DNA from: an uncultured Bacillales bacterium
Lineage (GTDB): Bacteria > Bacillota_I > Bacilli_A > RF39 > UBA660
Assembly: GCA_949948745.1 (NCBI GenBank)
Contig: CATLHA010000002.1
Span: 11,195 to 75,194, forward strand
Reading direction: 5' to 3'
Length of the DNA stretch: 64,000 bases
Positions 4,537-64,000 of the stretch are shown piece by piece; the first letter of the stretch is position 1; each line of letters begins with the position of its first letter. Position numbers and translations under genes: made by a program. The notes beneath the pieces are model-generated. The model was given only the letters and a program-made list of their open reading frames with translations. It searched no databases and was not told where the DNA came from.

Positions 4537-4626
4537 AAGCATCTCCTATGATTACATTATATCACATACATTTTACATTTTTCAAAAAAAGAAAAAGAAA
4601 GACCATATAAGCCTTTCAAGATCATT

Positions 4627-12598: not shown

Positions 12599-13924
12599 TT
12601 ATCCTTTCTGTTTAGTAGCATTCCATAACCTCTTCCACATTTTATCTGTAGAATAATTTAAGATTCCTACTTTATAAATTCTAAATCCATACTTAATCAT
12701 AATCCAAATCGTAATAATTAAAAATAACACTGAAATTAGGACATCAAAAATACCAATTTGTCCTATCACAAGTAATGCTGGTGAAAGTAAACAAGAAATA
12801 AAAGGAACATAAGATAACACTCGAATAAAAATAGAACCATTAAATACTCCAGCCATAATAGACAAATAATATCCAAGTAAACATACCATCATAATAGGTG
12901 TTTGGATTTGTTGAAAATCTTCCATATTTACAGTCATAGAAGCTAAAATTCCCGCAATTAAAGAATATGCGATAAATGACAAAATCATAAGAACTAAAGC
13001 AGAGATTATAATTTCTGGAAGTCGATCCATAATTCCCATCTGCCCTAAACTATTCCATATATCATTAAAAGTACTAGTAAGAGAACTAGAACTTGTACTT
13101 GTACCAAAAAGAGTTTTAACAAGTAATCCAATTCCACCATAAATAAGAAGAAGTGCTCCTTGCATTAAAACAAAGACATTAGATGCTAACACTTTAGAAA
13201 AGAAATGTGTCTTTGGACTAACATTAGAAATAATGATTTCCATACTTTTTGTAGTCTTTTCTTCATTAATTTCCGTACCAATCATTTGTACTAAAAAGAT
13301 AACTAACATAAAAAATGGTAAGATTACTGTCGGAAAAACAGTACCCATAATTAAAGACATAGCTTCATCATCAGTTTTTGCCTCAGTATCTAAAATTAAT
13401 CGTTCTATCTCAACATTAGAAGTAATCTTCTGTAATTGAATAGGATCAATATTAGCATATTTCATCGCAACTTGTGCCTTCGTTTGATTCAAAGCTTGTA
13501 CAAGTAATTGATAAGACATCGTATCAATCTTAGTATCAGAAATAATTTTTGCTTTCATATAAACATCATTATCTTTTTCTAAAACAATTCCTATCTTATC
13601 ATTTTCTTTTAATTCTTCTTTTAACTTATCTAAATTACCAGAATAAACTTCAACTGAAATATCATTATCTAAATCTAAAGTTTCTTTAGAAAAAGTTAAG
13701 TTTTGTTCAAATATTTCTTTACTTTCTTTTGTTTCATCTAATAATACAATCTCTATATCTGATGAAAAATCTCCACCAAAGAAACTAATAATACTATCCA
13801 TATTTATAATACCAACAAGAACTACCAAAAGTAATAAATTCGCAAATAAAAACCATTTTGTTTTTACTTTTTTATTTAAACTTTGCTTTGTCAAAAACCA
13901 AAATTTACTCGTCATATGCTTCAC
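12599..13924 (-). CDS. ABC-2 type transporter permease
   Basis: N-terminal TM, large extracytoplasmic loop and a C-terminal cluster of 5-6 TM helices; overlaps the ATPase gene. Confidence 0.65.
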   Translation of the reverse strand: MKHMTSKFWFLTKQSLNKKVKTKWFLFANLLLLVVLVGIINMDSIISFFGGDFSSDIEIVLLDETKESKEIFEQNLTFSKETLDLDNDISVEVYSGNLDKLKEELKENDKIGIVLEKDNDVYMKAKIISDTKIDTMSYQLLVQALNQTKAQVAMKYANIDPIQLQKITSNVEIERLILDTEAKTDDEAMSLIMGTVFPTVILPFFMLVIFLVQMIGTEINEEKTTKSMEIIISNVSPKTHFFSKVLASNVFVLMQGALLLIYGGIGLLVKTLFGTSTSSSSLTSTFNDIWNSLGQMGIMDRLPEIIISALVLMILSFIAYSLIAGILASMTVNMEDFQQIQTPIMMVCLLGYYLSIMAGVFNGSIFIRVLSYVPFISCLLSPALLVIGQIGIFDVLISVLFLIITIWIMIKYGFRIYKVGILNYSTDKMWKRLWNATKQKG

Positions 13925-18118: not shown

Positions 18119-20485
18119 TTATTTATCACGAACTACTGCTGGTAATTTATTTTCAACAGATTCGATAATTTGATTAAATATCTTCATTACTTCTTCATCA
18201 TTTAATGTACGTGTAGGATCTTGGAATGTTAAAGAGAATGCGATAGATTTTTCATCATTACCAACATTTTCACCTTCATATACATCGAATACTTGGGTAG
18301 AAGTTAATAACTTTCCACCTGCTTTTTTAATTACAGAACGAATCTCATCAGCAGTAATATTTTTCTTAACAACAAAGGCAACATCTTTTAATACACTTGG
18401 GTATTTTGTGATTTCTTTATATTGCATTTTCTTTGTACGGAAGCTAAGTAATGTTTCTAGGTTAATTTCCATTACAAAAATATTGTCTTTTATAATAGAA
18501 GGATGTACTTTTCCAATAACACCGATTTCAACATTATTTAAAATAATCTTCGCACTTTGTCCAGGATGAAGTTCATCAACTTCACTAGTTGGAACAATAC
18601 TGTAACGGTTTTGGTATCCTAAAGATTCTAATATTTCTTCTAAGATTCCCTTAATTACATAAAAGTCTACTACTTCTTTATGAAGTCCAACATTATAAAT
18701 TCCTGTCATAAGTACAGCCAAACGCTCTTCTTCATGATAAATTCCATCTTTTTTATAGAATCCTTTTCCAATTTCATAAATAGAGATATCTTTATAATTT
18801 CTTGCCTTATTGTATTTGAATACAGATAATAAAGACGGAATTAGACTATATCTTAAAGTGTTTCTATCTTCACTCATTGGATCTAGTACTTTTACCTTTT
18901 CAACATCCTTAACAGTTGTAAATTTTAGTCCATCAGACTCAGGAGTAAGCGCATAACTTAACGTTTCATTTAATCCTAAATCAGCTAGTTTATTTCTAAT
19001 ATAACGTTTCGTTCTATCTACAGTGCCAGGCATAACAGGAAGCATCATCGCTTTTCCTTCAATTTTATCAATACCATAAATTCTACCAACTTCTTCGATA
19101 ATATCTTCTGGAATTGAAATATCAGTTCTTCTAGTTGGAACAGTAATAGTTAAAACAGAATCTTTTTCTACTACTTCAAATTGTAAACGTTTTAAAATAT
19201 CAAGTATTTCTTCTTTTGTAATGGAAATACCAAGAACTTTATTAATCTTATCAATAGAAACAACTACTTCTTTTTCTTTAATTTCCATATTTTTATATTC
19301 CACCATGCCAGATACAATTTTGGCATCTGCATACTTTTCTAATAAGTGACAACTTCTCATCATTGCCATATAAGTTCTTTTTGGATCAAGACCTTTTTCA
19401 AAACGATTACTTGCTTCACTTCTTAATACTTTCTTACTTGTCTTACGAATGCATGTTGGATGGAAGATTGCGGATTCGATAATAATATTTTTTGTATCTT
19501 CTTCGATCTCAGTAGTTAAACCACCCATAACACCAGCAAGTCCAACTGCTTCTTTATCAGTCGCAATCACAATATCAGAAGAAGATAATACTCTTTCTTG
19601 ACTATCTAGTGTTGTTAATTTTTCATCGTCTTTCGCCATACGAACGATTAATTTATCTCCTAATCGATCGGCATCATAATAATGAAGAGGCTGCCCTGTT
19701 TCTAACATAACATAGTTTGAAATATCAACTACATTATTAATTGGACGAATTCCAGATGCCATTAAGCGATTTTTAATAAATTCAGGACTTTCTTTAATTG
19801 TCACATCTACTACTTTTTTAGCTAAGAATAAAGGACAATTTTCAGTTTGTATATCAAGAATAAATTTACCATCAATAGATTCTTTTTCTTCTTTAAATGA
19901 TAAATCAATATCTCCTACTTCTTTTCCATAAATAGCCCCAATTTCATAAGCCATTCCTAAAATACTTAAAAGGTCTCCTCTATTAGAAGTTAATTCAAAG
20001 TCGATAACTTCATCATCAAGTCCCATAAATTGAATAGCATCCTCTCCAACAGGAGCATCACTAGGTAATTCATGAATTCCATTGATATCTTTTTCAGTTA
20101 AGAATTTATGTTCTAAACCAAGTTCAGAAATAGCGCAAAGCATTCCATTAGATTCTTGACCACGAATAGTTCCTTTTTTAATAACACCACCAGGAAGGGT
20201 TGTACCATCTGTTGCGACGATTACTTTAATTCCTGTACGAACATTAGGAGCACCACATACAATTTGTAGTACTTCACTACCAATATTTACTTTACATACA
20301 TGAAGATGATCACTATCTGGATGATCGATACATTCTACTACTTCACCAATAATTAATTTAGAAGTTGGAATTAGCTTTTCACAAGAGTCGTATTCATTTC
20401 CAACGTTAGTCATATCATCAGCTAAAGTCTTAGTATCAACATCGATTGATACATAATCACTAACAAATTTTCTACTTAATTTCAT
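18119..20485 (-). CDS. pheT: phenylalanine--tRNA ligase beta subunit
   Basis: tRNA-binding, B3/4 and B5 domain architecture, ~790 aa; start at MKLSRKF after SD AAAGGATGAGG. Confidence 0.9.
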   Translation of the reverse strand: MKLSRKFVSDYVSIDVDTKTLADDMTNVGNEYDSCEKLIPTSKLIIGEVVECIDHPDSDHLHVCKVNIGSEVLQIVCGAPNVRTGIKVIVATDGTTLPGGVIKKGTIRGQESNGMLCAISELGLEHKFLTEKDINGIHELPSDAPVGEDAIQFMGLDDEVIDFELTSNRGDLLSILGMAYEIGAIYGKEVGDIDLSFKEEKESIDGKFILDIQTENCPLFLAKKVVDVTIKESPEFIKNRLMASGIRPINNVVDISNYVMLETGQPLHYYDADRLGDKLIVRMAKDDEKLTTLDSQERVLSSSDIVIATDKEAVGLAGVMGGLTTEIEEDTKNIIIESAIFHPTCIRKTSKKVLRSEASNRFEKGLDPKRTYMAMMRSCHLLEKYADAKIVSGMVEYKNMEIKEKEVVVSIDKINKVLGISITKEEILDILKRLQFEVVEKDSVLTITVPTRRTDISIPEDIIEEVGRIYGIDKIEGKAMMLPVMPGTVDRTKRYIRNKLADLGLNETLSYALTPESDGLKFTTVKDVEKVKVLDPMSEDRNTLRYSLIPSLLSVFKYNKARNYKDISIYEIGKGFYKKDGIYHEEERLAVLMTGIYNVGLHKEVVDFYVIKGILEEILESLGYQNRYSIVPTSEVDELHPGQSAKIILNNVEIGVIGKVHPSIIKDNIFVMEINLETLLSFRTKKMQYKEITKYPSVLKDVAFVVKKNITADEIRSVIKKAGGKLLTSTQVFDVYEGENVGNDEKSIAFSLTFQDPTRTLNDEEVMKIFNQIIESVENKLPAVVRDK

Positions 20486-21530
20486 TTTCCTCATCCTTTC
20501 TATCAAATTGTTCTAAGAAACGGATATCATTTGTATATAAATAACGAATATCAGGAATTTCATAACGGAACATAGCTAATCTATCTAAACCAGTTCCAAA
20601 AGCAAATCCTGTCCAAACTTTAGGATCATATCCACCCATTTCTAATACATTAGGATGAACCATACCTGCACCTAATAATTCAATCCATCCTGTTTGTTTA
20701 CATAAAGGACATCCCTTACCACCACATTTAAAGCATGTAACATCAACTTCAACACTTGGCTCTGTAAATGGGAAGAAACTTGGACGAAAACGAACATGAG
20801 TATTTTCACCTAACATCTTTTTCGCAAATAACTCTAAAGTTCCTTTTAGATCTGCTAAAGAAACATCTTTATCAACAACCAATCCTTCTACTTGTCCAAA
20901 TTGATGAGAATGAGTAGCATCATCATCCCTACGATATACTTTACCAGGACAAATCATACGGATTGCTGTTTTATCTTTATTTGCTTGCATAGTTCTTGCT
21001 TGAACACTAGAAGTTTGTGTACGAAGTAAGTATTCTGGATCAATATAGAAGGTATCTTGTGCATCTCTTGCTGGATGTCCTAAAGGTACATTTAATCTTT
21101 GGAAACAATTTTCATCTGTTTCAAGTTCTGGTCCATCTACTACATCATATCCCATAGAAACAAAGAAATCTTCAACATCTTCAATAATTCTTTGGAATGG
21201 ATGACGAGAACCTCTTTTTAACTTTTTACTAGGTAAACTTAAGTCAATTCTTTCTGACTCTAATTTTTCATTTAATTCTTTTATCTTTAGTTCTTCTTCC
21301 AATTCAGAAATTTTTGTAGTTACTTCTACTTTGATTTCATTAGAAACACGTCCTACTTCTTTCTTTTCTTCGATAGAAAGTTCTTTCATATTACTAGTAA
21401 GTCCTGTAACAAGACCTTTTTTTCCGAAATATTTTACTTTTAATTCTTGACAGTCTTTACTAGATGTAACATTCTTAATATCTTCTTCTAAAGACTCTCT
21501 AATTATTTTTACTTTTTCTGTTATATTCAT
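20472..21530 (-). CDS. pheS: phenylalanine--tRNA ligase alpha subunit
   Basis: Class II aaRS motifs. The start is placed at MNITEK (ATG 21530, SD AAAGGA) because the track's 5' extension would run through the T-box terminator. Confidence 0.9.
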   Translation of the reverse strand: MNITEKVKIIRESLEEDIKNVTSSKDCQELKVKYFGKKGLVTGLTSNMKELSIEEKKEVGRVSNEIKVEVTTKISELEEELKIKELNEKLESERIDLSLPSKKLKRGSRHPFQRIIEDVEDFFVSMGYDVVDGPELETDENCFQRLNVPLGHPARDAQDTFYIDPEYLLRTQTSSVQARTMQANKDKTAIRMICPGKVYRRDDDATHSHQFGQVEGLVVDKDVSLADLKGTLELFAKKMLGENTHVRFRPSFFPFTEPSVEVDVTCFKCGGKGCPLCKQTGWIELLGAGMVHPNVLEMGGYDPKVWTGFAFGTGLDRLAMFRYEIPDIRYLYTNDIRFLEQFDRKDEENEIK

Positions 21531-21555
21531 AAAAATCATCCTTTCTAACATAGTA

Positions 21556-21790
21556 GTTTGAGCATGAAAAAACGACAACTCACACCTAAGGGCGAATTGT
21601 CGCGGTACCACCTTATTTATAGATTTCTCTATATCTCTAATTTCTTAACGCGAAATATACGCTTAGCTTTTTACTAAGAACTCCAAAGGTGAATTCTTAA
21701 GAACTATCTTCCTTGTTTTCACCAACCACAAGGTCTCTAATAAGATATTTTTCTTAGTACTACTCCTTTATCCAAGTCAAACTCAATATG
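21556..21790 (-). promoter_or_regulatory. T-box riboswitch leader with Phe (UUC) specifier, upstream of pheST
   Basis: Minus strand shows AGAGA box, specifier context GAAUUCACC, T-box sequence AAGGUGGUACCGCG, then terminator CGACAA...UUGUCG plus U6 (21567-21602). Confidence 0.85.
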
Positions 21791-38976: not shown

Positions 38977-39099
38977 CCTCTCTATCTACTGACTCTTTTA
39001 GTATAAAAGAAAAAAGGAAAGAAAAGCAAGGAAAAAAACACTTTTTTTAACTCTTTTTAGTTTCTTTACAAAAAGACAAAAGAAGAAAAAGAAAAAGAA

Positions 39100-39468
39100 T
39101 CAGTTTTTATGAACCAATTCTTTTCCCATTTCCCAACTACGGAAGAAAATGCATTCCAAATAATCATTAAATTTAATTTCATAGATTCCATTAAAAGAGA
39201 AAGAATCCCTTTCAAAAATCCAATTGACAATCAAAGTATTTCTATCGATTGCCAAAATAAGAAATTCAATCTTTTTGATATTTTGATTTTTAATATGCTG
39301 CCATTCTTTTTGAATTTCTTCAAATGTAGTATAACCTTCGACAAAAGGAGTTTCTTGATAATAAGTAGTTTTCTTAAATAAATTCGTTGCTTTTTCTATA
39401 TTTTTTTCAAACCAACCCATTTTTAATTCTTCCAACCATTTACATGCAAATTCATAAGTTAATTTCAT
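39100..39468 (-). CDS. hypothetical protein (122 aa)
   Basis: ORF with a TGA stop; overlaps the recombinase gene by 17 nt. Confidence 0.5.
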   Translation of the reverse strand: MKLTYEFACKWLEELKMGWFEKNIEKATNLFKKTTYYQETPFVEGYTTFEEIQKEWQHIKNQNIKKIEFLILAIDRNTLIVNWIFERDSFSFNGIYEIKFNDYLECIFFRSWEMGKELVHKN

Positions 39469-40405
39469 CTTGTTTTCTTTCCTTTCTAGCCCTCGGATGA
39501 GTTTTTAAATAAACATCTTTTAATCGATTACTTGTAATATGTGTATAGATACTAGTAGTTGTCAGACTTTCATGTCCTAAAAGTTGTTGAACAGAAAGTA
39601 AATCACACCCTTCATTCAATAAATGAGTCGCAAAACTATGTCGAATCATATGAGGAGAAATATTTTTATTAATTGATGTCTTTTGTATAATCTCCTCTAA
39701 TACTTGTTGCACCCTTCTAGTTGTTAATTTTCCTCCTCTACGATTTAAAAATAAATAAGGAGATTGATTCATATCCAAGACTTTTCTACCACTTTCTATA
39801 TAATTATTCATTTTTCTTAAAGCAACATCATTAAAATAAACCTTTCTCATCTTGCTTCCTTTTCCTAGAATACGAATAGACTTTTCACTAATAGAAATAT
39901 CTTTTATTTGAATATTTATAAGTTCACTAACACGTACACCTGTTGCATAAAGCATTTCCAAAATCACGGAATCTCTCTGTCCTAATGGCGTAGAACAATC
40001 TGGTACTAAAAACATCTTTTCTAGTTCACTATATTCAAAATACTTAGGAAGCCTCTTCTCCTTCTTTGGTAAAACCAATAAAGAAAAAGACTCATTAGAT
40101 ACAATTTTTTGATTCGCTAAATAGCGATAAAAACTACGAATACAGGAAATTTTTCTAGAAACAGTAGTAGCTTTTTCATGATTTTCTTCATATAAATAAA
40201 GCAAATATTCCTTTGCATTCTGATAATTTATATTTAAATAAGAATAATGGTGAAAATTACAGAAACCTAAAAACTCTATTAAATCTTCCCTATAACTAGC
40301 AATAGTATCAACAGAATAGTTTTTTTGAATCCTTAAATATTCAAAAAAAGAATCTAATTCCTTTTGCTCCATATAATAATTACGATAAGAAAACTTACTT
40401 TCCAT
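39452..40405 (-). CDS. tyrosine site-specific recombinase, XerC/XerD family
   Basis: N-terminal core-binding domain (…SVDTIASYREDLIEFL…) and C-terminal RHSFATHLLNEGCDLLSVQQLLGHESLTTTSIYTHI with the catalytic Tyr. Confidence 0.8.
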   Translation of the reverse strand: MESKFSYRNYYMEQKELDSFFEYLRIQKNYSVDTIASYREDLIEFLGFCNFHHYSYLNINYQNAKEYLLYLYEENHEKATTVSRKISCIRSFYRYLANQKIVSNESFSLLVLPKKEKRLPKYFEYSELEKMFLVPDCSTPLGQRDSVILEMLYATGVRVSELINIQIKDISISEKSIRILGKGSKMRKVYFNDVALRKMNNYIESGRKVLDMNQSPYLFLNRRGGKLTTRRVQQVLEEIIQKTSINKNISPHMIRHSFATHLLNEGCDLLSVQQLLGHESLTTTSIYTHITSNRLKDVYLKTHPRARKERKQDEINL

Positions 40406-41174
40406 AATAATTTCCCATTTCCTCTATCTCTTCTGAATCTAAAAATTCTTCTTTTTCATTATCCATATCATCTACATAAATTTGCTTATATCCTGCATAA
40501 ATAGAAGAAACTTCTTTATCTAGTTGAAAAGTACTAGATAAAAATTTATTTGTTTGCGGTTTCAATTTGGTAACAGGTTTAATTCCATGGTAAACAGAAT
40601 TTATCCTTCTATCCAAATGATTTCTATACACACACAAAGAACGATAAGTCTTATAATCCATTAACTCTTTTAGAATACTATCTTCTAATAATTTTTTTTG
40701 ATGCATGTCTTCTTCGCTATCTGAAAAACTACACAAGTATTTATTTACTAACCGAGAAAATTTATTACGATATTGATAATATTGTAAGAAATTCTTACCT
40801 CCATTCTCAAAATCCTGGAAAAGAAATCTCCTCATATCAGAAACACCAGAGGCATCAGAAAGATTTTTGATTCTTAAAGATTGTTTATCATCAACAACTC
40901 CATTGATTACAGATTCTAAAAAAGGATTTTGAAACATTACAGAGTAACTATAATCCTTTCCTTTAATTGAAATTCTAAAGGATGAAATCATTTGAATATC
41001 CCTTTGATCTAAATAATTTTCTAAACTATGAATAAAATCCCACTTACTATATACATTGGTAAACTTATCAATTTCTAATAAACTAGGCGCATTTGATACT
41101 AAAAAATTTAAATTAATTGTTTTTTCATCATTTAATACTGCTTCTAATATATATGTAGCCATCATAAACACCAC
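40395..41174 (-). CDS. hypothetical protein (259 aa)
   Basis: ORF translationally coupled to the recombinase gene. Confidence 0.5.
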   Translation of the reverse strand: MVFMMATYILEAVLNDEKTINLNFLVSNAPSLLEIDKFTNVYSKWDFIHSLENYLDQRDIQMISSFRISIKGKDYSYSVMFQNPFLESVINGVVDDKQSLRIKNLSDASGVSDMRRFLFQDFENGGKNFLQYYQYRNKFSRLVNKYLCSFSDSEEDMHQKKLLEDSILKELMDYKTYRSLCVYRNHLDRRINSVYHGIKPVTKLKPQTNKFLSSTFQLDKEVSSIYAGYKQIYVDDMDNEKEEFLDSEEIEEMGNYYGK

Positions 41175-41236
41175 CCTATTAAAATCATTGTAACAAACTA
41201 GTTTTCATTTGTAAATTAAAGAAAAGACGATTGGCA

Positions 41237-43318
41237 TTACTTAACACCAATCATCTTACATTTATCTGTAACCAATTCTTTTCTTAAAATATTCATCTCC
41301 TCTTTTGTATATCCAGAATAAGGAGTATAAATCAAAGATCTAATTACCTTTTCTAAAATAGGGAGATTTTCCTCATGACTTAACACTTCAAAATTGCGTA
41401 AAAAGCGATTTCTAGAAACTGGAATTCCTGAAATTGAATATAAGGAATCACCAATTAAATATTTAGAATCCAATTCTCTTATAATAGGCATAGAAAGTGT
41501 TTCAGAAGAAATTGTTAATCTAGAGTTATTTTCTAAAATATCATCAGAAGATAAGCAATAATCATCTTCAAAATACTGATTGATATCAGAAACAGGAAAT
41601 ACATCGTCCATAAAACAGTTGATAGGTATTTCTCCTTCTACTAAATATCCAATTTCTCTCATTAATCGAATTCTTTTCCCTACAAATTTATTTTGTTCTG
41701 TCAACAAACAAGGATTCTCTCTAATAAAGTTTAAAAATCCCAATTCGATAAATTCATCGTATAAATCAAAAGATTGATCATATAAAAGATAATTATAATC
41801 ATTCATTGAATTAGAATAAAAAGAAGTTTCATAATACTCATGCAAATTTAATCGTTCTTTTAACTTTTCAAAATCTTCTAAAAATATAGAAAATGTTCTC
41901 TTAGACACATCCTTTGCTGAAATACCCTTCCCTTCTAGTAAACTAGAATTTCTTTCGAATTGATTAAAATTATCAGAATGAACATCAAAGTATTCAATAT
42001 GCTCACTTAATATTTTAACAGTTAAATATTTTCTTTTTAAATAATATTCTATCTTTGAAATTCTATTTATTGATGTAGTAGTTAAAATTTGAAAATAGAA
42101 AGGCTTCCAGTTAAAAGTACTATTTTCTAATAATAGGATCATTTCTTTTATCTTCTCTAAGGAACAAATAGAAGTCATTTTTTGTTTCTCACTATCAGAA
42201 AGTGTTTCTGGATGACAATGATATTGATTAAGTAATGCACATAACTGTTCAAAATCATTTTTCTTATACTTGTATAATTTTCTTTTCCATTTTCTTTCTC
42301 CTTTTAAATTAACCTCCTGCATTTTTAACAGTATTTGCTTTTGTAAATTTTTGTTTTTTAATTTAACAATAGAAGAAGATAAAGGATAGAATTCTTCATT
42401 CTTGGACAATAATTGTATAATACTAGTTAAATGAGAAATCTGCGCATATAATTCCTTTCGTTCTTTAGAAAACAAATTTTCATTTTCCTGACACATTACA
42501 AAAAAATGATAAACTGGTTCTAACTTCCTCCACATATTCTGATATTCATTAAAATCCTCTGCTAATTGAGTAATTTTTGAATCATTCACATCATTACAAA
42601 CAACAATTAGTTGACTTCCTGATTTATCAAATTTTATTTTATTCTGCTTAAGCATTAGATTTAATTGTTCTATACAAGAATTATATTTTGTAATCACTCC
42701 TAAAAAACCTTTAAAGATAGAATACTCTTCTTTTAATTTTTCAAAAACAGTAGAAAATAAAATTAAAAAAGTAAAAAGCCTTTGAATTCCATCTACAGTT
42801 GTCTTTTTATTTTGAAAATCTTTTAAATCTTCAAAAGCATTAACAAAATTATTTTTAATTAAAACTGCTAAAACAATTTTTAAATCATAATCCTTATTTT
42901 TATCTTCCACTTGATGATTTTCCTCTAAAAAGGTATCTATATCAATTGAAATAAGAGATTCCATTTGATCTTCTTTTAAAAATTCTTCAATACCAGATAT
43001 ATAATTATCCAATATGTCTTTATCTAACTGCTCTATCCCATAAAACAATTGAAACCAAATAATTTCAGGCTTATCATCAATGTACGGTGCTAAGTCATCC
43101 ATAATTTCCGAAATTAAAAACCATTTTTCAAAAGGAATATATAAATAAAAATATATTTTAAATAATTCAGACACTTTTAATATTGGGAAATCTTTATTGA
43201 AAGACGGATTTACAATATTTTTAATTTTCTCTTCAATTCTTAAACACTCATCAATCGCACCTATTTCATATTGATATTCTACTTTTTGAGCCAAAATTTT
43301 ACTTATTACTTTTTGCAT
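41237..43318 (-). CDS. hypothetical protein (693 aa)
   Basis: Long ORF with no recognisable motif. Confidence 0.55.
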   Translation of the reverse strand: MQKVISKILAQKVEYQYEIGAIDECLRIEEKIKNIVNPSFNKDFPILKVSELFKIYFYLYIPFEKWFLISEIMDDLAPYIDDKPEIIWFQLFYGIEQLDKDILDNYISGIEEFLKEDQMESLISIDIDTFLEENHQVEDKNKDYDLKIVLAVLIKNNFVNAFEDLKDFQNKKTTVDGIQRLFTFLILFSTVFEKLKEEYSIFKGFLGVITKYNSCIEQLNLMLKQNKIKFDKSGSQLIVVCNDVNDSKITQLAEDFNEYQNMWRKLEPVYHFFVMCQENENLFSKERKELYAQISHLTSIIQLLSKNEEFYPLSSSIVKLKNKNLQKQILLKMQEVNLKGERKWKRKLYKYKKNDFEQLCALLNQYHCHPETLSDSEKQKMTSICSLEKIKEMILLLENSTFNWKPFYFQILTTTSINRISKIEYYLKRKYLTVKILSEHIEYFDVHSDNFNQFERNSSLLEGKGISAKDVSKRTFSIFLEDFEKLKERLNLHEYYETSFYSNSMNDYNYLLYDQSFDLYDEFIELGFLNFIRENPCLLTEQNKFVGKRIRLMREIGYLVEGEIPINCFMDDVFPVSDINQYFEDDYCLSSDDILENNSRLTISSETLSMPIIRELDSKYLIGDSLYSISGIPVSRNRFLRNFEVLSHEENLPILEKVIRSLIYTPYSGYTKEEMNILRKELVTDKCKMIGVK

Positions 43319-44313
43319 TTCGCATCACCACCAATATTATCTTTTTGGTTTCGATCTAATAGAGAAAAAATCTGTTCTTCAAATAGTTTCTGCCTACTTA
43401 AATACTCTATATTCTCTTCTTCCAAACATTTATAAATTTGTTTTGACTGTTTATTATAAGAATCCTCTCTATTTTGAAGATTAATACGAAGTTCTTTTTC
43501 CCATAAACATTTTTTAACAAAAGCAGTTAATACACAATAATAATTTTTATAAACTCTAGTAAATACAACACGACTTGCACCATCCTTTACTTCAAATAAA
43601 GATGTATTAGTTTGAAGTTTTCTTAAACTGGGGAAAACTCCCTCTTCTAAATATCGAAATAGTTTCATAAATGAAGAATAGGATTCCAAAGGAATATCAT
43701 TTGATTTTAAATCAGATAATACGCAAGCTTTATTAGAAATAGTTTCCAAATATACAAGAGAGTTTTTTTGACACTCCTTTACATCTTTAGATTCAAAGCT
43801 AGGAGCCATATATTCATGAATCCAAGCTATTTTGGATTTAATAGATTCTATCTCCTTCAAAATATATTCATGTTCTTCCCCTTCAAAATCATCTAAAATA
43901 AAACTATAATCTTTTTTTTCTTTTGCAAGTGCATACAAAATTTTAGAAAGATAATAAAAACTATTATCTTCTTTAATAGAAGGTAAATAATGATAGAACT
44001 CTTCTCTTGATTGAATATTACTAGAAAAGATTAAATCTAAATAAAATTGAAGTTTCTCACAGTTTTCTGAATCTTTCTCTTCTTCTATCTGATCATCCTC
44101 AAAAACCTTTTCTTCTTCACTAGAAATAAAATCAGGTAAATTACTTATTGATAGTAATTTACTAATCTTTTCCTGTTCTATACATTGTTTTTGTAAAGAT
44201 ATCCCTTTCTTATAGCCTTCCACAACACCAAGTTGAAGATTAGAAATTAAAGAACTAGATACTTCTTTAGATTCACTCTTCAAAGAAGAATATAATTGAT
44301 TCCAAGTTCGCAT
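43306..44313 (-). CDS. hypothetical protein (335 aa)
   Basis: ORF; overlaps the 693-aa gene by 13 nt. Confidence 0.5.
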   Translation of the reverse strand: MRTWNQLYSSLKSESKEVSSSLISNLQLGVVEGYKKGISLQKQCIEQEKISKLLSISNLPDFISSEEEKVFEDDQIEEEKDSENCEKLQFYLDLIFSSNIQSREEFYHYLPSIKEDNSFYYLSKILYALAKEKKDYSFILDDFEGEEHEYILKEIESIKSKIAWIHEYMAPSFESKDVKECQKNSLVYLETISNKACVLSDLKSNDIPLESYSSFMKLFRYLEEGVFPSLRKLQTNTSLFEVKDGASRVVFTRVYKNYYCVLTAFVKKCLWEKELRINLQNREDSYNKQSKQIYKCLEEENIEYLSRQKLFEEQIFSLLDRNQKDNIGGDAKCKK

Positions 44314-44382
44314 TCAAAATCACTCCCAAAAAAATTGTACTTATTATAACACAATGTATAAAAACACACAATAAAAGAGAGA

Positions 44383-46434
44383 TTACTCTCCCTTTGCATT
44401 TTTTTCATTTGTTTTACATTCTGAATTACTACATTTCACTTGACTATTTTTTTCAACTAGCAAACTACCACACTCTTTACAGATATCACCAGTTGGTATG
44501 TCCCAAGTAGCCACTTTACATTTTGGATAATTATTGCATCCATAAAATATTTTACCACGTTTTGTCTTTTTTTCTATGATTTGTCCCTTTTTACAAATAG
44601 GACAATCCATAATTATTTTCTCTTCTTTTAGTTCCTTCTTTATATATTTACATTCTGGATAATTACTACAAGCGGTAAATTCACCATATCTACCTTTTCG
44701 AATAACTAATGGACTTCCGCACTCTGGGCAAGTCTCTCCTGTTTCCTTTGGTGGAACTTTTTCCATTTCACCAAATGCTTTCTTAACAGTAGGTTCAAAT
44801 TTTTCATAGAAAGTTTCCAATACCTCCAAGGATTTTTCCTTTCCTTCTGCAATCTCATCTAAATCATGTTCCATCTGTGCTGTATATTTAACATTAATAA
44901 AATCTGAAAATCCTTCCTGTAATTTATCTGTAGTAATAATACCTATCTCAGTTGGCTTAAATTTCTTATCTATTACTTCTACATATCCGCGTGCTTTAAT
45001 TGTATCAACAATTGTTGCATAAGTAGATGGTCGACCGATTCCTAAATCTTCCAACTCCTTAATCAATTTTGCTTCACTGTAACGTGCTGGTGGAGATGTA
45101 AAATGTTGTTTAGACTCAACATCATCTGTCATAAAAGTTTTTTCACTCATCAGTTTTTCCGGTAATATTTTATCTTCACTATCTTCATAATCTGCGTATA
45201 GTTTTAAATAACCATCAAAAATTAGAACTTGACCATTTACTTTAAATTGATATTCATGATTATCTAAAATAACACTAGTTGCTCTAACTTTAGCATCACT
45301 CATTAAAGAAGATAAGGCTCTCGTATAAATGAAACGATATAGTTTATATTCATCAGGAGTTAGATATTGTTTCATCTCATTAGGGGTACGATTAATACTA
45401 GTTGGACGGATTGCTTCATGTGCATCTTGGATATTTTCATTTTTCTTTGACTTTTTTACATATCCAACATATTCTTTTCCATACTCTTTAAAAAGATATG
45501 CTTGTGCAGATGATACAAATTCATCACTCAAACGAACTGAATCTGTTCTCATATAAGTAATAAGTCCAACTGTTTCAGTTCCCAAATCAATACCTTCATA
45601 TAATTTTTGTGCCAAACTCATTGTCTTCTTTGCTGTAAATCCTAATTTTGTAGAAGCTTCCTGCTGTAAAGTAGATGTAATAAAGGGAGCCTTTCCTTTT
45701 TTATTCTTTTCTTTTTCTTCAACATTAATAACTGTATAAGTAGAATCAATAGATTTAAGAACAGAATCAACATCATCTTTAGTCTTTAATTCTATCTTTT
45801 TATTTTTATATTGAAATAATTCCGCCGAAAAATCATCAAATAGTGCAGTAATTGTCCAATATTCTTCTGGAATAAAAGCTTCTATTTCTCTTTCACGATC
45901 TACAATTAATTTCAGTGCCACACTTTGAACCCTTCCAGCAGACTTACCGCCTGTCTTTGACTGCATTAATTTACTCAAACGGAATCCTATAATACGATCT
46001 AAAATTCTTCTAGTTTCTTGACTATGAACTAAATCTTCATCAATCTTTCTTGTAGATAAAAATGCTTCTAATACTTTATCTTTTGTAATTTCATGAAACA
46101 ATACACGTTCATAATTATTATCTTTAATTCCTAATGTTTCTTTTAAATGCCATGAAATTGCTTCTCCTTCACGGTCAGGGTCGGTTGCTAGATAAACTTT
46201 GTCTGCTTCTTTTACATTTTTTTTAAGTTCAGAAACCAATTTTTTCTTTCCACTAATCAATATGTAATTAGGTTCAAAATGATTATCAACATCTACACCA
46301 AGACCATACTTACCAGTTGTTGCAAGATCTCTAATATGTCCAACAGATGCTACTACTTTATAATCTTTTCCTAAATATTTTTCTATAGTCTTACTTTTAC
46401 TAGGTGATTCCACAATTACCAATTTTTCTGCCAT
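44383..46434 (-). CDS. topA: DNA topoisomerase I
   Basis: Toprim plus Topo IA core (…YLATDPDREGEAI…) and C-terminal zinc ribbons (CPECGSPLV…, CPICKKG…, CKECGSLL…). Confidence 0.9.
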   Translation of the reverse strand: MAEKLVIVESPSKSKTIEKYLGKDYKVVASVGHIRDLATTGKYGLGVDVDNHFEPNYILISGKKKLVSELKKNVKEADKVYLATDPDREGEAISWHLKETLGIKDNNYERVLFHEITKDKVLEAFLSTRKIDEDLVHSQETRRILDRIIGFRLSKLMQSKTGGKSAGRVQSVALKLIVDREREIEAFIPEEYWTITALFDDFSAELFQYKNKKIELKTKDDVDSVLKSIDSTYTVINVEEKEKNKKGKAPFITSTLQQEASTKLGFTAKKTMSLAQKLYEGIDLGTETVGLITYMRTDSVRLSDEFVSSAQAYLFKEYGKEYVGYVKKSKKNENIQDAHEAIRPTSINRTPNEMKQYLTPDEYKLYRFIYTRALSSLMSDAKVRATSVILDNHEYQFKVNGQVLIFDGYLKLYADYEDSEDKILPEKLMSEKTFMTDDVESKQHFTSPPARYSEAKLIKELEDLGIGRPSTYATIVDTIKARGYVEVIDKKFKPTEIGIITTDKLQEGFSDFINVKYTAQMEHDLDEIAEGKEKSLEVLETFYEKFEPTVKKAFGEMEKVPPKETGETCPECGSPLVIRKGRYGEFTACSNYPECKYIKKELKEEKIIMDCPICKKGQIIEKKTKRGKIFYGCNNYPKCKVATWDIPTGDICKECGSLLVEKNSQVKCSNSECKTNEKNAKGE

Positions 46435-46579: not shown

Positions 46580-49500
46580 TTAAACAACAAGGGAACCTTT
46601 TACTACATTAGAATTGCTAGATTTTGTGGTAAGCATGGAATCTACTAAATTAGAATTATTACTTGTATAATTAATAATAAGTTTTGCTGGAGAATTCTTT
46701 GCTGTTCCAAAAAAAGCTTCTGAATATGTAGTATTTGTTGTACGTATTGTAAACGTTGTAGTTAAACGCCAACAATTGTAAAAGATTTTATCCATTCGAG
46801 TCACATTTCTTGTATCAAAACCACTTAAATCAAAATCACCTAATGATGTACAATTAAAAAACATTTCCTCCATACTTGTCACCTTTGAAGTATTAAAGTT
46901 AGTAACATTTAGATTTCCTAATCTTTGACAATCTCGAAACATTCTTGTCATATCAGTTACACTAGATGTATCAAAATTCTGAAGAATAGTAGTTATATAC
47001 CAACATGCCCGAAACATAGAGTCCATGGTTATTACTTTACTGGTATTAAAATAACGCAAATCTAAAGACTGAATTTTTCCTAATTCAAAAAACATATAAC
47101 TCATATTTGTTACATTAGAAGTATTAAAACTACTAACATTCAATTCAGGAAGATTTTTACAAGAACAAAACATATAAGCCATATTTGTTACTTTAGATGT
47201 ATTAAATTTACTTACATCAAGATTAGTTAAAGACTTACAAGCATGAAACATATAAGCCATATTTGTTACTTTGGATGTATTAAATTTACTTACATCTAGT
47301 GCCGTAATATTATTACATTCTTGAAACATATAGCCCATATTTGTTACATTTGATGTATTAAATTTACTTACATCAAGATTAGCTAAAGACTTACAAGATT
47401 GAAACATATAAGCCATATTTGTTACTTTGGATGTATTAAACTTACTTACATCTAAACTTGTTAAACTACTACAACCACGAAACATATTTTGCATTGTTGT
47501 AACTAAAGATGTATCAAAAGTATCTATATTTATATTTAATACTTCTAATTTATTACATTCTTGAAACATTCCAAGCATCGTTGTAACATTTTTTGTATTG
47601 AAATTTCTGATATCTAAATTCTCTAATTCATAGCAATTATTAAACATATTAGATGTATTAGTTACCTTTTCTGTATTAAAACTGCTTAAATTAACTGATT
47701 TTAAATAATTTGTATTACTAAACATAACCCTCATTGTTGTTACATTACTTGTATCAAAATTACTTAAATCTAAATTAACCAATCCAGTTCCTGCAAACAT
47801 CGCGGTCATGTCTGTTACTTTTGATGTATTAAAACTACTTAAATTAATTTCTTGAAGTTTAGAAGTTCCTCCAAACATCCACTGCATTGTTGTTACATTA
47901 CTTGTATCAAAACTACTAACATCTAAACTTGTCAATGCCAAATTGTCTCGAAACATATTTAACATGGTTGTTACTTTACTTGTATCAAATGTCCTTAAGT
48001 CTAAACTCTTTAAACTCTCACACCAACCAAACATAGAACTCATATCAGTAACATTAGATGTATCAAAATATTCTATTCCCTCCACACTTTCTAATCTCCT
48101 AAATTGATTAAATAAATAGGAACTATTTTTATTCGCTATTACTCTATTATCCCCTTGGATATATATTGTATAAGTAGAAGAATCTTCTACATTAGGTACA
48201 ACTCTTCCCATTACCCCAAAATTATTTTCTTCTGACAAATCAAAGCTTTCTAGAGTATTATACACTTCTTTAATTTGATCTTGAAATACTACCTTTGTTA
48301 CCGAATCTTTATACTTCCATATCTCCTCTGCTCCTGTATCCGAATTTAATGCAACTTGCATTTTAGGAACTGGCGCTACATAAATTTCTCCACTCATAGA
48401 TTTCGCCAAAGATAGTTTTCGCCACTCTGCTTTTAATACTACATCTGCTTCTGGCATAATAAAGTAATCATCATTTATTTGCTTTGCCTCTACTCCCATC
48501 ACTTTCCATTCTTGAAATCGATATCCTTCACATTCTGGAACTATTTCACTAATGGATACCTTATCAAATACAAAGTGATTTTCTGATATTGGTATATTCC
48601 TTACAGTACATCCCTCTGGTGCATTTCCTTCATAACTTACTCGATAATTATTCGATATTCTTGGTGTTTCTGTACTTGTTATATTTTCTTCTATCCCACC
48701 AATACTACTTTCTACTTTCTCTTTATTATTTGTATTATAAACACCTACTTGATTTATATAATTACTCTTTAATTCTACATCAAGTTCCATCTTTAATTTA
48801 GATCCTGATTTTAAATTATCAATTGTCCATGTTACTTTTTGTTCTTCTTGATTAAATGTAACATTTCCTTGACTGACTGTAATATCATTACTACTTTCTA
48901 ATTTAAAATTACTAGTATCTATATAATCTGTTAATACAAAATTATCATATGAAGTTGGTACAATAGATGCATCAAATAATATATTATTTAGTGTTTCTAT
49001 ATCTGCTAGATATTGATTATCTGATACTTTCTTGATTGGATCTAGAATATCCATCCCCATTTCATATTGAATTCCATTAACTATAACTTGTGGATATTCT
49101 TGTTTTAGATATTGAAAATAACTTTCCTCGTTTGGTGTATCTTCACAAGGATAACCATCTGTTAAAAATAAAACAATACAATTTCTATCATTACTTGATA
49201 TATAATTTTTTAATATATTATCTACATTGATTAAAGCTTGATAATAATTTGTTGTTCCTTTTTCACTTAGATTATTTATTAAACTTATCAAAGTAGTTTT
49301 ATCATTCGTAAAATCCGATAATATTTCTGAATCTGTATCAAATGTAATTAAGGCAGCTTTATTATTAGAATCTGATAGTAATGTATCAACAAGTCCTATA
49401 CTGTCTTGTTTTACTCTTTCTATTTTATTTCCACTCATGGAACCTGAAATATCCAGTACAAATATAATATCTCTATTTTTATCTTCTGTTTTCAATATGG

Positions 49501-49744
49501 TATCTATTTGAAAGGTAATCCTAGCTTTTCCACTACCTATCCACTCTGCGCTCTTCTCTACTTGAAAGCTTCCTGGTTCTTTTTTATTATAATTTAACTT
49601 TTCTGATGAAAAATTAATACTCTTTATTGGAGTAACTAGTGCAAAAGAACTATAAAGTAATCCTGTTATTGTTAATAAAAAACCTACAACTACAATTGAT
49701 AGTAAAACAAACTTATTTGGTACTTTCAAAATATCATTCTTCAT
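46580..49744 (-). CDS. secreted/surface protein with N-terminal vWA domain and long array of DUF285/BspA-like ~23-aa repeats
   Basis: Signal/TM segment, vWA MIDAS motif VLDISGSMSGNK, then ~25 repeats of LDxSxFNTSxVTNMxYMFxxCxxL. Confidence 0.75.
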   Translation of the reverse strand: MKNDILKVPNKFVLLSIVVVGFLLTITGLLYSSFALVTPIKSINFSSEKLNYNKKEPGSFQVEKSAEWIGSGKARITFQIDTILKTEDKNRDIIFVLDISGSMSGNKIERVKQDSIGLVDTLLSDSNNKAALITFDTDSEILSDFTNDKTTLISLINNLSEKGTTNYYQALINVDNILKNYISSNDRNCIVLFLTDGYPCEDTPNEESYFQYLKQEYPQVIVNGIQYEMGMDILDPIKKVSDNQYLADIETLNNILFDASIVPTSYDNFVLTDYIDTSNFKLESSNDITVSQGNVTFNQEEQKVTWTIDNLKSGSKLKMELDVELKSNYINQVGVYNTNNKEKVESSIGGIEENITSTETPRISNNYRVSYEGNAPEGCTVRNIPISENHFVFDKVSISEIVPECEGYRFQEWKVMGVEAKQINDDYFIMPEADVVLKAEWRKLSLAKSMSGEIYVAPVPKMQVALNSDTGAEEIWKYKDSVTKVVFQDQIKEVYNTLESFDLSEENNFGVMGRVVPNVEDSSTYTIYIQGDNRVIANKNSSYLFNQFRRLESVEGIEYFDTSNVTDMSSMFGWCESLKSLDLRTFDTSKVTTMLNMFRDNLALTSLDVSSFDTSNVTTMQWMFGGTSKLQEINLSSFNTSKVTDMTAMFAGTGLVNLDLSNFDTSNVTTMRVMFSNTNYLKSVNLSSFNTEKVTNTSNMFNNCYELENLDIRNFNTKNVTTMLGMFQECNKLEVLNINIDTFDTSLVTTMQNMFRGCSSLTSLDVSKFNTSKVTNMAYMFQSCKSLANLDVSKFNTSNVTNMGYMFQECNNITALDVSKFNTSKVTNMAYMFHACKSLTNLDVSKFNTSKVTNMAYMFCSCKNLPELNVSSFNTSNVTNMSYMFFELGKIQSLDLRYFNTSKVITMDSMFRACWYITTILQNFDTSSVTDMTRMFRDCQRLGNLNVTNFNTSKVTSMEEMFFNCTSLGDFDLSGFDTRNVTRMDKIFYNCWRLTTTFTIRTTNTTYSEAFFGTAKNSPAKLIINYTSNNSNLVDSMLTTKSSNSNVVKGSLVV
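46840..47900. repeat. intragenic 66-69-nt tandem repeats (near-identical copies) encoding the DUF285/BspA-like modules
   Basis: catatttgttactttggatgtattaaatttacttacatc and variants recur every ~69 nt (e.g. 47263, 47332, 47395). Confidence 0.75.
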
Positions 49745-63306: not shown

Positions 63307-64000
63307 CTATCTTCCTGAGAAATATTTCTTAACCTTATTTCTAGTATTTTCATATTTATCATCGTAAAAACATCCTGTATAAAAATATCCCTGATTTTCT
63401 TCATTATATGTATTTCTTGATGCAGAATAAAATTCTTTATCTCTCCCACTATCAATTAAAGATGAAAAAATCATATCTTTAGAAACTCCTGCTTTTTCCA
63501 ATTGTCTACGAATAACTGTTTCAATGTCGATATAGAAATGTCCACGATAGTCTGTAACAATTCCATTACCCCAAACATTATTATAATTTTTCATCCATTC
63601 TGGAAAACCACATCGATCAATAAAAGAATCCCTAGAAGCATGAGGACCCATATAGACAGAAATATCCTTTGTCTTAGTATCCGCTTCTTCTCTTAAAGAT
63701 TCAATTAATTGAATTGGAAGTTCTCTATCAATATACTCTCCACCACAATAACAAACTGCTGCTAACTGTTTTTTATTATCTTTAGCTACAAGTACTGGAC
63801 AATCAGAAACTGGATAGGCAACCGCCACCTTTGGAACCTTAGGATGAATCATTACAATATCTGCAAAAACATAGAAATCCTGAAGATCAGTAAAAGAATG
63901 AATCATATCTTTTGTAATTTTAACATAAGCACCATCTGGATAACTAGTAAACTTGCTTCTTTTTCCGCCAAAATTTTTTTCCGCAGAATATTCTGTTTTT
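63307..64000 (-). CDS. hypothetical protein, 5' end outside window; possibly divergent YfiH/PgeF (DUF152)-like
   Basis: The reading frame stays open upstream of the track's ATG (63906) to the window edge. VSDCPVLVA and YMGPHAS weakly resemble YfiH ADCxPVL / GP motifs. Confidence 0.3.
   Translation of the reverse strand, partial: KTEYSAEKNFGGKRSKFTSYPDGAYVKITKDMIHSFTDLQDFYVFADIVMIHPKVPKVAVAYPVSDCPVLVAKDNKKQLAAVCYCGGEYIDRELPIQLIESLREEADTKTKDISVYMGPHASRDSFIDRCGFPEWMKNYNNVWGNGIVTDYRGHFYIDIETVIRRQLEKAGVSKDMIFSSLIDSGRDKEFYSASRNTYNEENQGYFYTGCFYDDKYENTRNKVKKYFSGR

Follow-up and report, generated by a model that had tools for sequence, protein, structure and literature searches.

Two predicted operons, one encoding a Gp49/HigB-like domain and one a Xer recombinase, downstream of topA in an uncultured Bacillales bacterium

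Introduction

What occupies the space between topA and the chromosomal Xer recombinase gene of an uncultured Bacillales bacterium, and does it work with the recombinase? In Bacillus subtilis the gene order topA-trmFO-xerC(codV)-hslVU(clpQY)-codY is established. In the 64,000-nucleotide (nt) stretch of contig CATLHA010000002.1 analysed here (the window, to which all coordinates refer unless another locus is named), topA is again followed, on its own strand, by a XerC/D-type gene (xer), whereas trmFO, hslVU and codY are missing from the arrangement. p3, accompanied by p1 and p2 in the sub-clade to which this organism belongs, separates topA from xer, and ppdK comes after xer. A first-pass annotation of this DNA had rightly pointed out that three unannotated genes fill the interval where many Firmicutes have trmFO, and had gone on to treat them as one cassette of unknown function, co-expressed with the recombinase. 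The comparisons reported below point to a different organisation, in which p1 and p2 form a coupled pair with a toxin-like domain and p3 belongs with xer.

Results

Two transcription units in one interval

p1 (43306-44313, minus strand, 335 amino acids (aa)) and p2 (41237-43318, minus, 693 aa) overlap by 13 nt (43306-43318), and the stop codon of p3 (40395-41174, minus, 259 aa from a GTG start) overlaps the start of xer (39452-40405, minus, 317 aa) by 11 nt (40395-40405); the list of open reading frames (ORFs) bears out the lengths, strand and overlaps first given for these genes. p2 and p3 do not overlap. They are separated by a 62-nt spacer, and this junction holds a terminator-like hairpin of 15 pairs followed by a T-run, which runs across the p2 stop codon (41224-41257, minus), and a promoter-like site that matches the consensus (TTTACA-17-TACAAT, with a TG-extended -10; 41187-41215, minus). 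In the related locus L006 the hairpin (3572-3605) is preserved nearly base for base, the non-coding half of the stem included, and the promoter-like site recurs at 3615-3643, as it does in the more distant locus L013 at 13120-13148. The L006 proteins are only about 70% identical to those of the window, although the hairpin and the promoter-like site are nearly unchanged. Because both elements between p2 and p3 are conserved in relatives, the comparison supports two units, one of p1 and p2 and the other of p3, xer and orf122, the last of these genes being present in this species only.

The distribution of the genes leads to the same division. None of 65 p1-p2 loci found elsewhere carries p3 or Xer in the locus sequence or topA among its annotated neighbours, and several lineages with the order topA-p3-xer lack p1-p2 at that site. 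Together with the conserved terminator and promoter between p2 and p3, this contradicts a single three-gene unit, and the cassette of the first-pass annotation accordingly falls apart into two. Judged from these comparisons, the interval consists of two independent chromosomal operons that are vertically inherited.

By their conservation, p1, p2 and p3 are genuine genes. Their orthologues, at 38-73% identity, keep the gene order unchanged, and the ratio of nonsynonymous to synonymous substitution rates against a relative is 0.25-0.30 (up to 0.35) for the three, compared with 0.09 for Xer. Each protein is acidic overall and has no transmembrane segment. The GTG of p3 falls within a Shine-Dalgarno-like GGGTGGTG and the orthologues start at an ATG; since they begin there and the GTG lies inside GGGTGGTG, the true start is probably the ATG at 41165 (40395-41165, ~255 aa) or that at 41162 (255-256 aa for the two). 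The GC content is 0.235-0.26 over positions ~41500-43500, which cover p2 and the 3' part of p1 (up to 0.27 over p1-p2), against ~0.30-0.34 in the topA and ppdK flanks. Such a drop fits genes that evolve fast under weak constraint and is by itself no sign of foreign origin.

p1 and p2 form a widespread, fast-evolving pair

A word-indexed homology search returned only 5-6 close relatives per protein, and the impression of an orphan cassette that it gave was overturned by profile searching. HMMER, run against 1.84 billion representatives with a concatenated query (p2, p3 and residues 90-335 of p1), yielded 260 matches at E<=1e-3; in the top 150 of these 260, 112 were p1-like, 31 p2-like and 19 p3-like. 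The p1-like matches measure ~310-350 aa and the p2-like ones ~620-695 aa. A metagenome scan with a p1 sub-alignment added 59 further loci from gut and rumen samples, with a GC content of 0.20-0.31. Across the 65 loci, p2 stands directly 3' of p1 on the same strand in nearly every case with sufficient sequence, at a spacing that is mostly -8 to +2 nt (52 junctions). On this evidence p1-p2 is an obligate, translationally coupled pair and constitutes an unannotated two-gene family of low-GC gut and rumen Bacilli.

The pair sits among housekeeping genes. Its dominant downstream neighbour is rplU-prp-rpmA-obg, while other loci have an ABC-F protein, infC-rpmI-rplT, a GyrB/ParE-like gene, SpoIVB or FtsK at this position; upstream lie AddAB, an amino-acid-kinase-family protein, MinD-like, YlmH, HolA or LeuRS. 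Only in the sub-clade of the window does p1-p2 adjoin topA, p3 or Xer. In the p1-p2 relatives, identity to the window is 66-70% for Obg and 67-74% for L21, and drops to 20-30% for p1 and 16-21% for p2. Since Obg and L21 are this similar while p1 and p2 are highly diverged, the family is limited to one fairly narrow, order-scale group of Bacilli, in which it evolves very fast.

The window has its own rplU-prp-rpmA operon at ~62.2-63.1 kb (minus strand). There, where most relatives carry p1-p2, the operon is preceded by a 199-aa ORF (63307-63906, minus). Because the gene upstream of the operon differs in this way, p1-p2 is best described as having been relocated in this sub-clade by ~17 kb, to a position just downstream of topA.

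Some loci depart from the simple pair. Tandem p1-p2-p1-p2 copies occur in L034, L035 and L059, p2 is split into two ORFs in L027 and L074, and L028 carries a second p2 paralogue (1290-3155) flanked by small ORFs of 160-170 aa.

A sub-threshold Gp49/HigB-like domain in p1

Only one Pfam family, PF05973 ('phage-derived protein Gp49-like'), recurs across 80 p1 homologues. It matches residues 207-268 of the window protein at 14 bits (E 0.054) and, at E<=0.1, is found in 30 of the 80 homologues (best E 1.2e-5) and in five of six close ones. By hhalign, a 31-sequence profile of the C-terminal domain of p1 matched gp49 of phage N15 with a probability of 72% (E 3.5e-5), which rose to 88% (E 3e-6) against a five-sequence gp49 profile built from phage records. 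In these alignments E241, R248, F265, K267 and K268 of p1 fall on the invariant E53, R63, F80, K82 and K83 of gp49; across the 80 homologues R248 and K267 are invariant, and E241, F265 and K268 nearly so. At the position of gp49 R55, p1 proteins have K or R, and the window protein has K243. The signature G..E-[VL]-[KR], R, F-x-K-K is thus retained, with E-L/V-R/K in beta2, R in beta3 and F-x-K-K after beta4. The profile and residue matches together indicate that the C-terminal domain of p1 (residues ~185-290; 43444-43761, minus) is Gp49/HigB-like and belongs to the RelE/ParE superfamily, at a level below the thresholds of curated models. The domain is basic, with an isoelectric point of 8.8, and follows a helical region of ~180 residues with an isoelectric point of 4.7. 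The earlier statement that the three proteins have no recognisable motif consequently holds at the curated thresholds of Pfam, NCBIfam, PADLOC and PHROGs, and gives way below them for p1.

Narrow and broad alignments of p1, p2 and p3 yielded only coiled-coil noise or weak LytTR matches when compared with PDB profiles. LytTR, suggested for p1 by one such weak resemblance, was rejected: hhalign gave it a probability of 4%, compared with the value of 88% for gp49. AlphaFold models of p1 and p3 were made before deep alignments existed. The mean predicted local distance difference test score (pLDDT) of the p1 model is 52.9, with values of ~45-60 in the Gp49-like region, where the predicted beta-beta-alpha-beta-beta order is compatible with a BECR fold. 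Foldseek searches of the PDB with these low-confidence p1 and p3 models gave nothing below E 0.04 and are uninformative.

Conservation of p2 peaks in its C-terminal third (~residues 495-665), which contains the motifs D..D.FIELG and ISRNRxLRN. Neither the single sequence nor a 26-sequence profile matched known families or solved structures beyond coiled-coil-type noise, and no helix-turn-helix (HTH), ribbon-helix-helix or AbrB domain was found in the 26 homologues. A comparison of p2 with the antitoxin gp48 of N15 likewise showed no similarity.

p3 is constantly coupled to xer

p3 lies directly 5' of the Xer gene in 25 of 25 loci, and all 25 Xer genes are directly preceded by p3; among the loci examined p3 was not met away from Xer. 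The order is topA-p3-xer wherever the upstream flank is available, the p3 stop overlaps or abuts the xer start, and ppdK comes next after xer in p3 loci with an available downstream flank. p1-p2 is missing from most of these loci. Relatives of p3 at 36-43% identity occur in metagenome-assembled genomes labelled Bacilli bacterium, uncultured Tenericutes UMGS592 and Candidatus Scybalousia intestinigallinarum (the NCBI listing of this genus is now Candidatus Alloscybalousia, Bacilli incertae sedis). Across relatives p3 retains 39-43% identity, compared with 62-71% for Xer, 74-84% for topA and 90-95% for PpdK; the lowest values are 36-39% for p3 and 62% for Xer.

Conservation within p3 is concentrated in the motifs IDxFTN, KGKxYxYSVxFxN, EMKxFLF and YKTYRSLxxYR, after which comes a variable linker, and in a C-terminal acidic peptide, EE-K/R-EEFL..EE-I/L-E.M, which is encoded at the junction with xer. 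The low-confidence AlphaFold model (pLDDT 48.8) predicts a beta-rich N-terminal region, a helical middle and a disordered linker. Searches with p3, both the single sequence and a 17-sequence profile, gave no match in Pfam, NCBIfam, PHROGs, PADLOC or the PDB, and sequence comparison revealed no paralogy with p1 or p2. Throughout the loci compared, p3 is a clade-specific protein that, by its gene junctions, is always co-translated with the chromosomal Xer. The coupling to the recombinase that had been proposed for all three genes therefore stands for p3, adjacent and overlapping at every locus, and lapses for p1-p2, a separate operon with its 65 loci elsewhere.

A chromosomal XerC/D-type enzyme

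The recombinase carries a SAM-like N-terminal domain (PF02899) and a tyrosine-recombinase catalytic domain (PF00589), and its alignment to XerD of E. coli (1A0P; E 7e-51) brings the R, K, HxxR, H and Y positions into register. Its catalytic residues are complete, in the segments ATGVRVSEL, GKGSKMR, HMIRHSF, LLGHESL and IYTHI. Scores are below the NCBIfam equivalog cut-offs for XerC (314 vs 335 bits) and XerD (300 vs 330) and pass that of the generic tyrosine recombinase model NF001399 (289 vs 279). By these features and by its neighbours, the protein is an intact chromosomal XerC/D-type enzyme and not the integrase of an element. The alternative of a phage integrase with prophage flanks, which the first-pass annotation had kept in play, was checked and set aside on the grounds of this XerC/D type and the housekeeping neighbours of the interval (ftsA, ftsZ, topA, ppdK and a PMT-family glycosyltransferase). 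No second Xer is encoded within the 64-kb window. A Bacillus-type dif site within 3 mismatches is likewise absent from it, a result that is uninformative as dif need not be nearby. Chain 14 of PDB entry 9i5v (401 aa), labelled 'Ribosome-associated translation inhibitor RaiA', matches residues 17-310 of Xer at E 1.9e-44; the label is probably wrong here, unless the chain is a fusion.

Two readings would tie the whole interval to the recombinase. That it is an integrated mobile element or defence island with the recombinase as integrase, close to the cargo or defence insertion once proposed for it, could draw on the low GC content over p1-p2, on the lack of p1-p2 from the topA-xer site in related lineages and on the toxin-like domain of p1. 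We found no meaningful direct or inverted (att-like) repeats around the interval, no tRNA gene in the whole window and no phage or plasmid genes around the interval. p1 and a central member of its family have no relatives in phage and plasmid collections, IMG/VR pattern scans with the p1 sub-alignment and the p3 alignment gave nothing, and p1, p2, p3 and Xer are all without a match in PADLOC-DB 2.0 at E<=1. Xer, moreover, holds its topA-linked position in all relatives, with or without p1-p2, and synteny is stable even among species in which p1 is only 42-48% identical. An element or island of this kind is extremely improbable. That all three proteins form one accessory module, working and co-expressed with the recombinase, is very unlikely in turn: p1, p2 and p3 do stand adjacent on one strand here and in the closest relatives, but the conserved terminator and promoter part p2 from p3, and each unit occurs in lineages or loci that do not have the other beside it.

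Flanking genes and other features of the window

topA (44383-46434, minus, 683 aa) is the upstream context gene and matches Pfam Toprim, Topoisom_bac and Zn_ribbon_Top1; the gene is identical in the same-species contigs L001-L005. A terminator-like hairpin marks its end (44374-44395, minus) and is also present in L006 at 429-450. Between this hairpin and p1 lies a promoter-like site (44334-44362, minus; TTTATA-17-TACAAT), identified by consensus match only, and the equivalent position in L013 reads TTGCGA-17-TATAAT with a TG. At the other end of the interval, orf122 (39100-39468, minus, 122 aa) shares 17 nt with the end of xer, stop codon included, and a terminator-like hairpin comes after it (39090-39127, minus). 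In L006, L012, L018 and the other relatives Xer is not followed by orf122; the gene is confined to contigs L001-L005 and has weak, insignificant family matches only.

A 1,054-aa protein with VWA and DUF285 repeats (46580-49744, minus) is encoded between ftsZ and topA both here and in L002, and it is missing from this position in L012, L023 and L033. In L001, whose p2 is identical, the region upstream of topA carries GGDEF and BrkB-like genes and ~3.4 kb without a called gene; the difference from the window is either a strain-level rearrangement or an assembly difference. At the start of the window, no ORF is listed for positions 1-4600, which is an effect of the list alone, as it leaves out frames that extend beyond the source sequence. 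The minus strand here has a frame of more than 1,515 aa that contains no stop codon and continues past position 1, a very large truncated gene. The sole Rfam match in the window is a T-box leader (RF00230, 118 bits) at 21585-21783 on the minus strand. It lies upstream of a 379-aa ORF (20472-21611) and a 795-aa ORF (18119-20506), the sizes of which fit what we presume to be an aminoacyl-tRNA synthetase pair such as pheS/pheT.

Discussion

The analysis leads us to a reading that we consider modestly probable, namely that p1-p2 is an atypical toxin-first module, relocated beside a separate, lineage-specific p3-xer unit. Domains of the Gp49/HigB type are assigned to the RelE/ParE (BECR) fold, which is that of ribosome-dependent mRNA endonucleases. 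The Gp49-like domain of p1 would accordingly be expected to bind the ribosome or RNA, and it may be restrained by p2, by the acidic N-terminal region of p1 itself, or by both, so that the pair would act as an atypical toxin-first type II toxin-antitoxin or defence-like module. Like members of the gp49/HigB class, p1-p2 is a tightly coupled bicistron with the toxin-like gene first, the order also of genes 49 and 48 in phage N15, and the likeness to the PF05973 modules extends to the C-domain alignment, the signature residues and the basic character of the domain. Main-text passages of Gerdes 2025 (PMC11980606) present gp49-family toxins as ribosome-dependent mRNases whose gene lies upstream of that of the antitoxin; the toxin-like first gene and overlapping partner gene of p1-p2 resemble the modules treated there. 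The same passages describe multidomain forms, gp49-HTH fusions, in a survey that includes ToxM and ptuXYZ. p1 shares with these multidomain BECR toxins a Gp49-type domain set inside a larger protein, but the fusions described there carry a C-terminal HTH antitoxin, whereas the extension of p1 is N-terminal, helical and acidic and is combined with a separate large partner. These passages (PMC11980606) contain no gp49 form that is extended at the N terminus and paired with a large separate protein.

Several observations weigh against this interpretation. The match of p1 to the Gp49 family reaches 14 bits where the Pfam cut-off is 23.9, NCBIfam gives nothing consistent, and the models of p1 and p3 are of low confidence (pLDDT 53 and 49) and confirm no fold. 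Nor do the proteins have the dimensions of a small toxin (~90-120 aa) with a small DNA-binding antitoxin. At 335 aa p1 is three times the normal toxin size, owing to its extra N-terminal region of ~180 aa, and at 693 aa p2 is at least six times that of a normal antitoxin. The partners in the p2 family span 520-690 aa and have no detectable HTH, in contrast to the XRE-type antitoxin of ~95 aa, and p2 does not resemble N15 gp48. PADLOC found nothing for p1-p2. Finally, conserved housekeeping regions, rather than phages or plasmids, are where the pair is found, and a selfish toxin-antitoxin or defence module would not usually keep so stable a position across a clade.

This last point is where a domesticated function comes in. 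p1-p2 could be a housekeeping factor that uses the RelE-fold domain to attach to ribosomes and, as a complex, assists translation or ribosome quality control; we regard this main alternative as possible but doubtful. It would account for a pair that is vertically inherited, has been retained through relocation and lies co-directionally with housekeeping genes in core regions, many of these genes serving translation, in several arrangements: rplU-prp-rpmA is the dominant downstream neighbour, ABC-F is next, infC-rpmI-rplT is another, and rpsU-yqeY lies upstream in one locus. The action of Gp49-family toxins on the ribosome, as given in the passages cited above (PMC11980606), would fit as well. 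Yet the proteins evolve very fast by the standard of a core translation factor, with p1 at 20-30% and p2 at 16-21% where Obg is at 66-70%, and the existence of tandem copies and split p2 genes suggests that the pair is dispensable. Spacers of 129-139 nt before rplU do not indicate co-transcription, ribosomal genes are common neighbours by chance in small genomes, and the copy in the window adjoins topA instead.

As for p3, its association with Xer suggests that it may be a partner or modulator of the recombinase, perhaps docking on it through the conserved acidic C-terminal tail. This link is one of guilt by association. In B. subtilis the XerC homologue codV shares its operon with the functionally unrelated clpQY and codY, and given this precedent, co-operonic placement with Xer is weak evidence of a common function. 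It is a real possibility, only a little short of probable in our estimation, that p3 is functionally unlinked to Xer and merely shares its operon, as codV does with clpQ-clpY-codY. The codV operon shows that unrelated genes can stand beside Xer in Bacillus, no homology, domain or structure connects p3 with DNA or recombinases, and p3 evolves far faster than Xer (39-43% vs 62-71% identity). In favour of a functional tie are an adjacency that is strictly 1:1, with the stop/start overlap kept in all lineages seen and p3 nowhere else, and an acidic peptide that is conserved and encoded exactly at the xer junction. Xer recombinases do have accessory or activating factors, among them the gamma domain of FtsK, PepA, ArgR and ArcA at cer and psi, and the phage-encoded XafT. 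If p3 modulates Xer it would resemble these in being a small protein dedicated to a XerC/D-type enzyme, and it differs in having no sequence or structural similarity to Pfam, NCBIfam or PDB entries; we know of no Xer accessory factor that is encoded in a reading frame overlapping xer. The stronger proposition, that p3 is a dedicated, co-translated subunit or regulator of Xer, that p1-p2 is a HigB-like ribosome-binding module domesticated lineage-wide, or both, seems to us unlikely on present evidence. The simpler view raised at the outset, that these are ordinary conserved housekeeping genes of the lineage with the same context everywhere, captures part of the picture: the genes are chromosomal and conserved in the lineage, and the context of p3 is constant, but their functions are not ordinary known ones.

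The locus illustrates that adjacent, overlapping genes of unknown function beside a recombinase need not be one system, and the strictly conserved p3-xer overlap offers a concrete candidate for a lineage-specific Xer partner. Should p3 prove to be a subunit or regulator of Xer in these reduced-genome Bacilli, it would represent a new way to control dimer resolution. p1-p2, if interpreted correctly, would add a new architecture to the Gp49/HigB branch of RelE/ParE, in which a toxin-like protein lengthened at its N terminus is combined with a very large second protein. The pair is a fixed part of the core chromosome in a whole group of uncultured Bacilli from gut and rumen, and no Pfam, NCBIfam or PADLOC model covers it so far. 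Under this interpretation it would also allow one to examine how small genomes keep or domesticate toxin folds.

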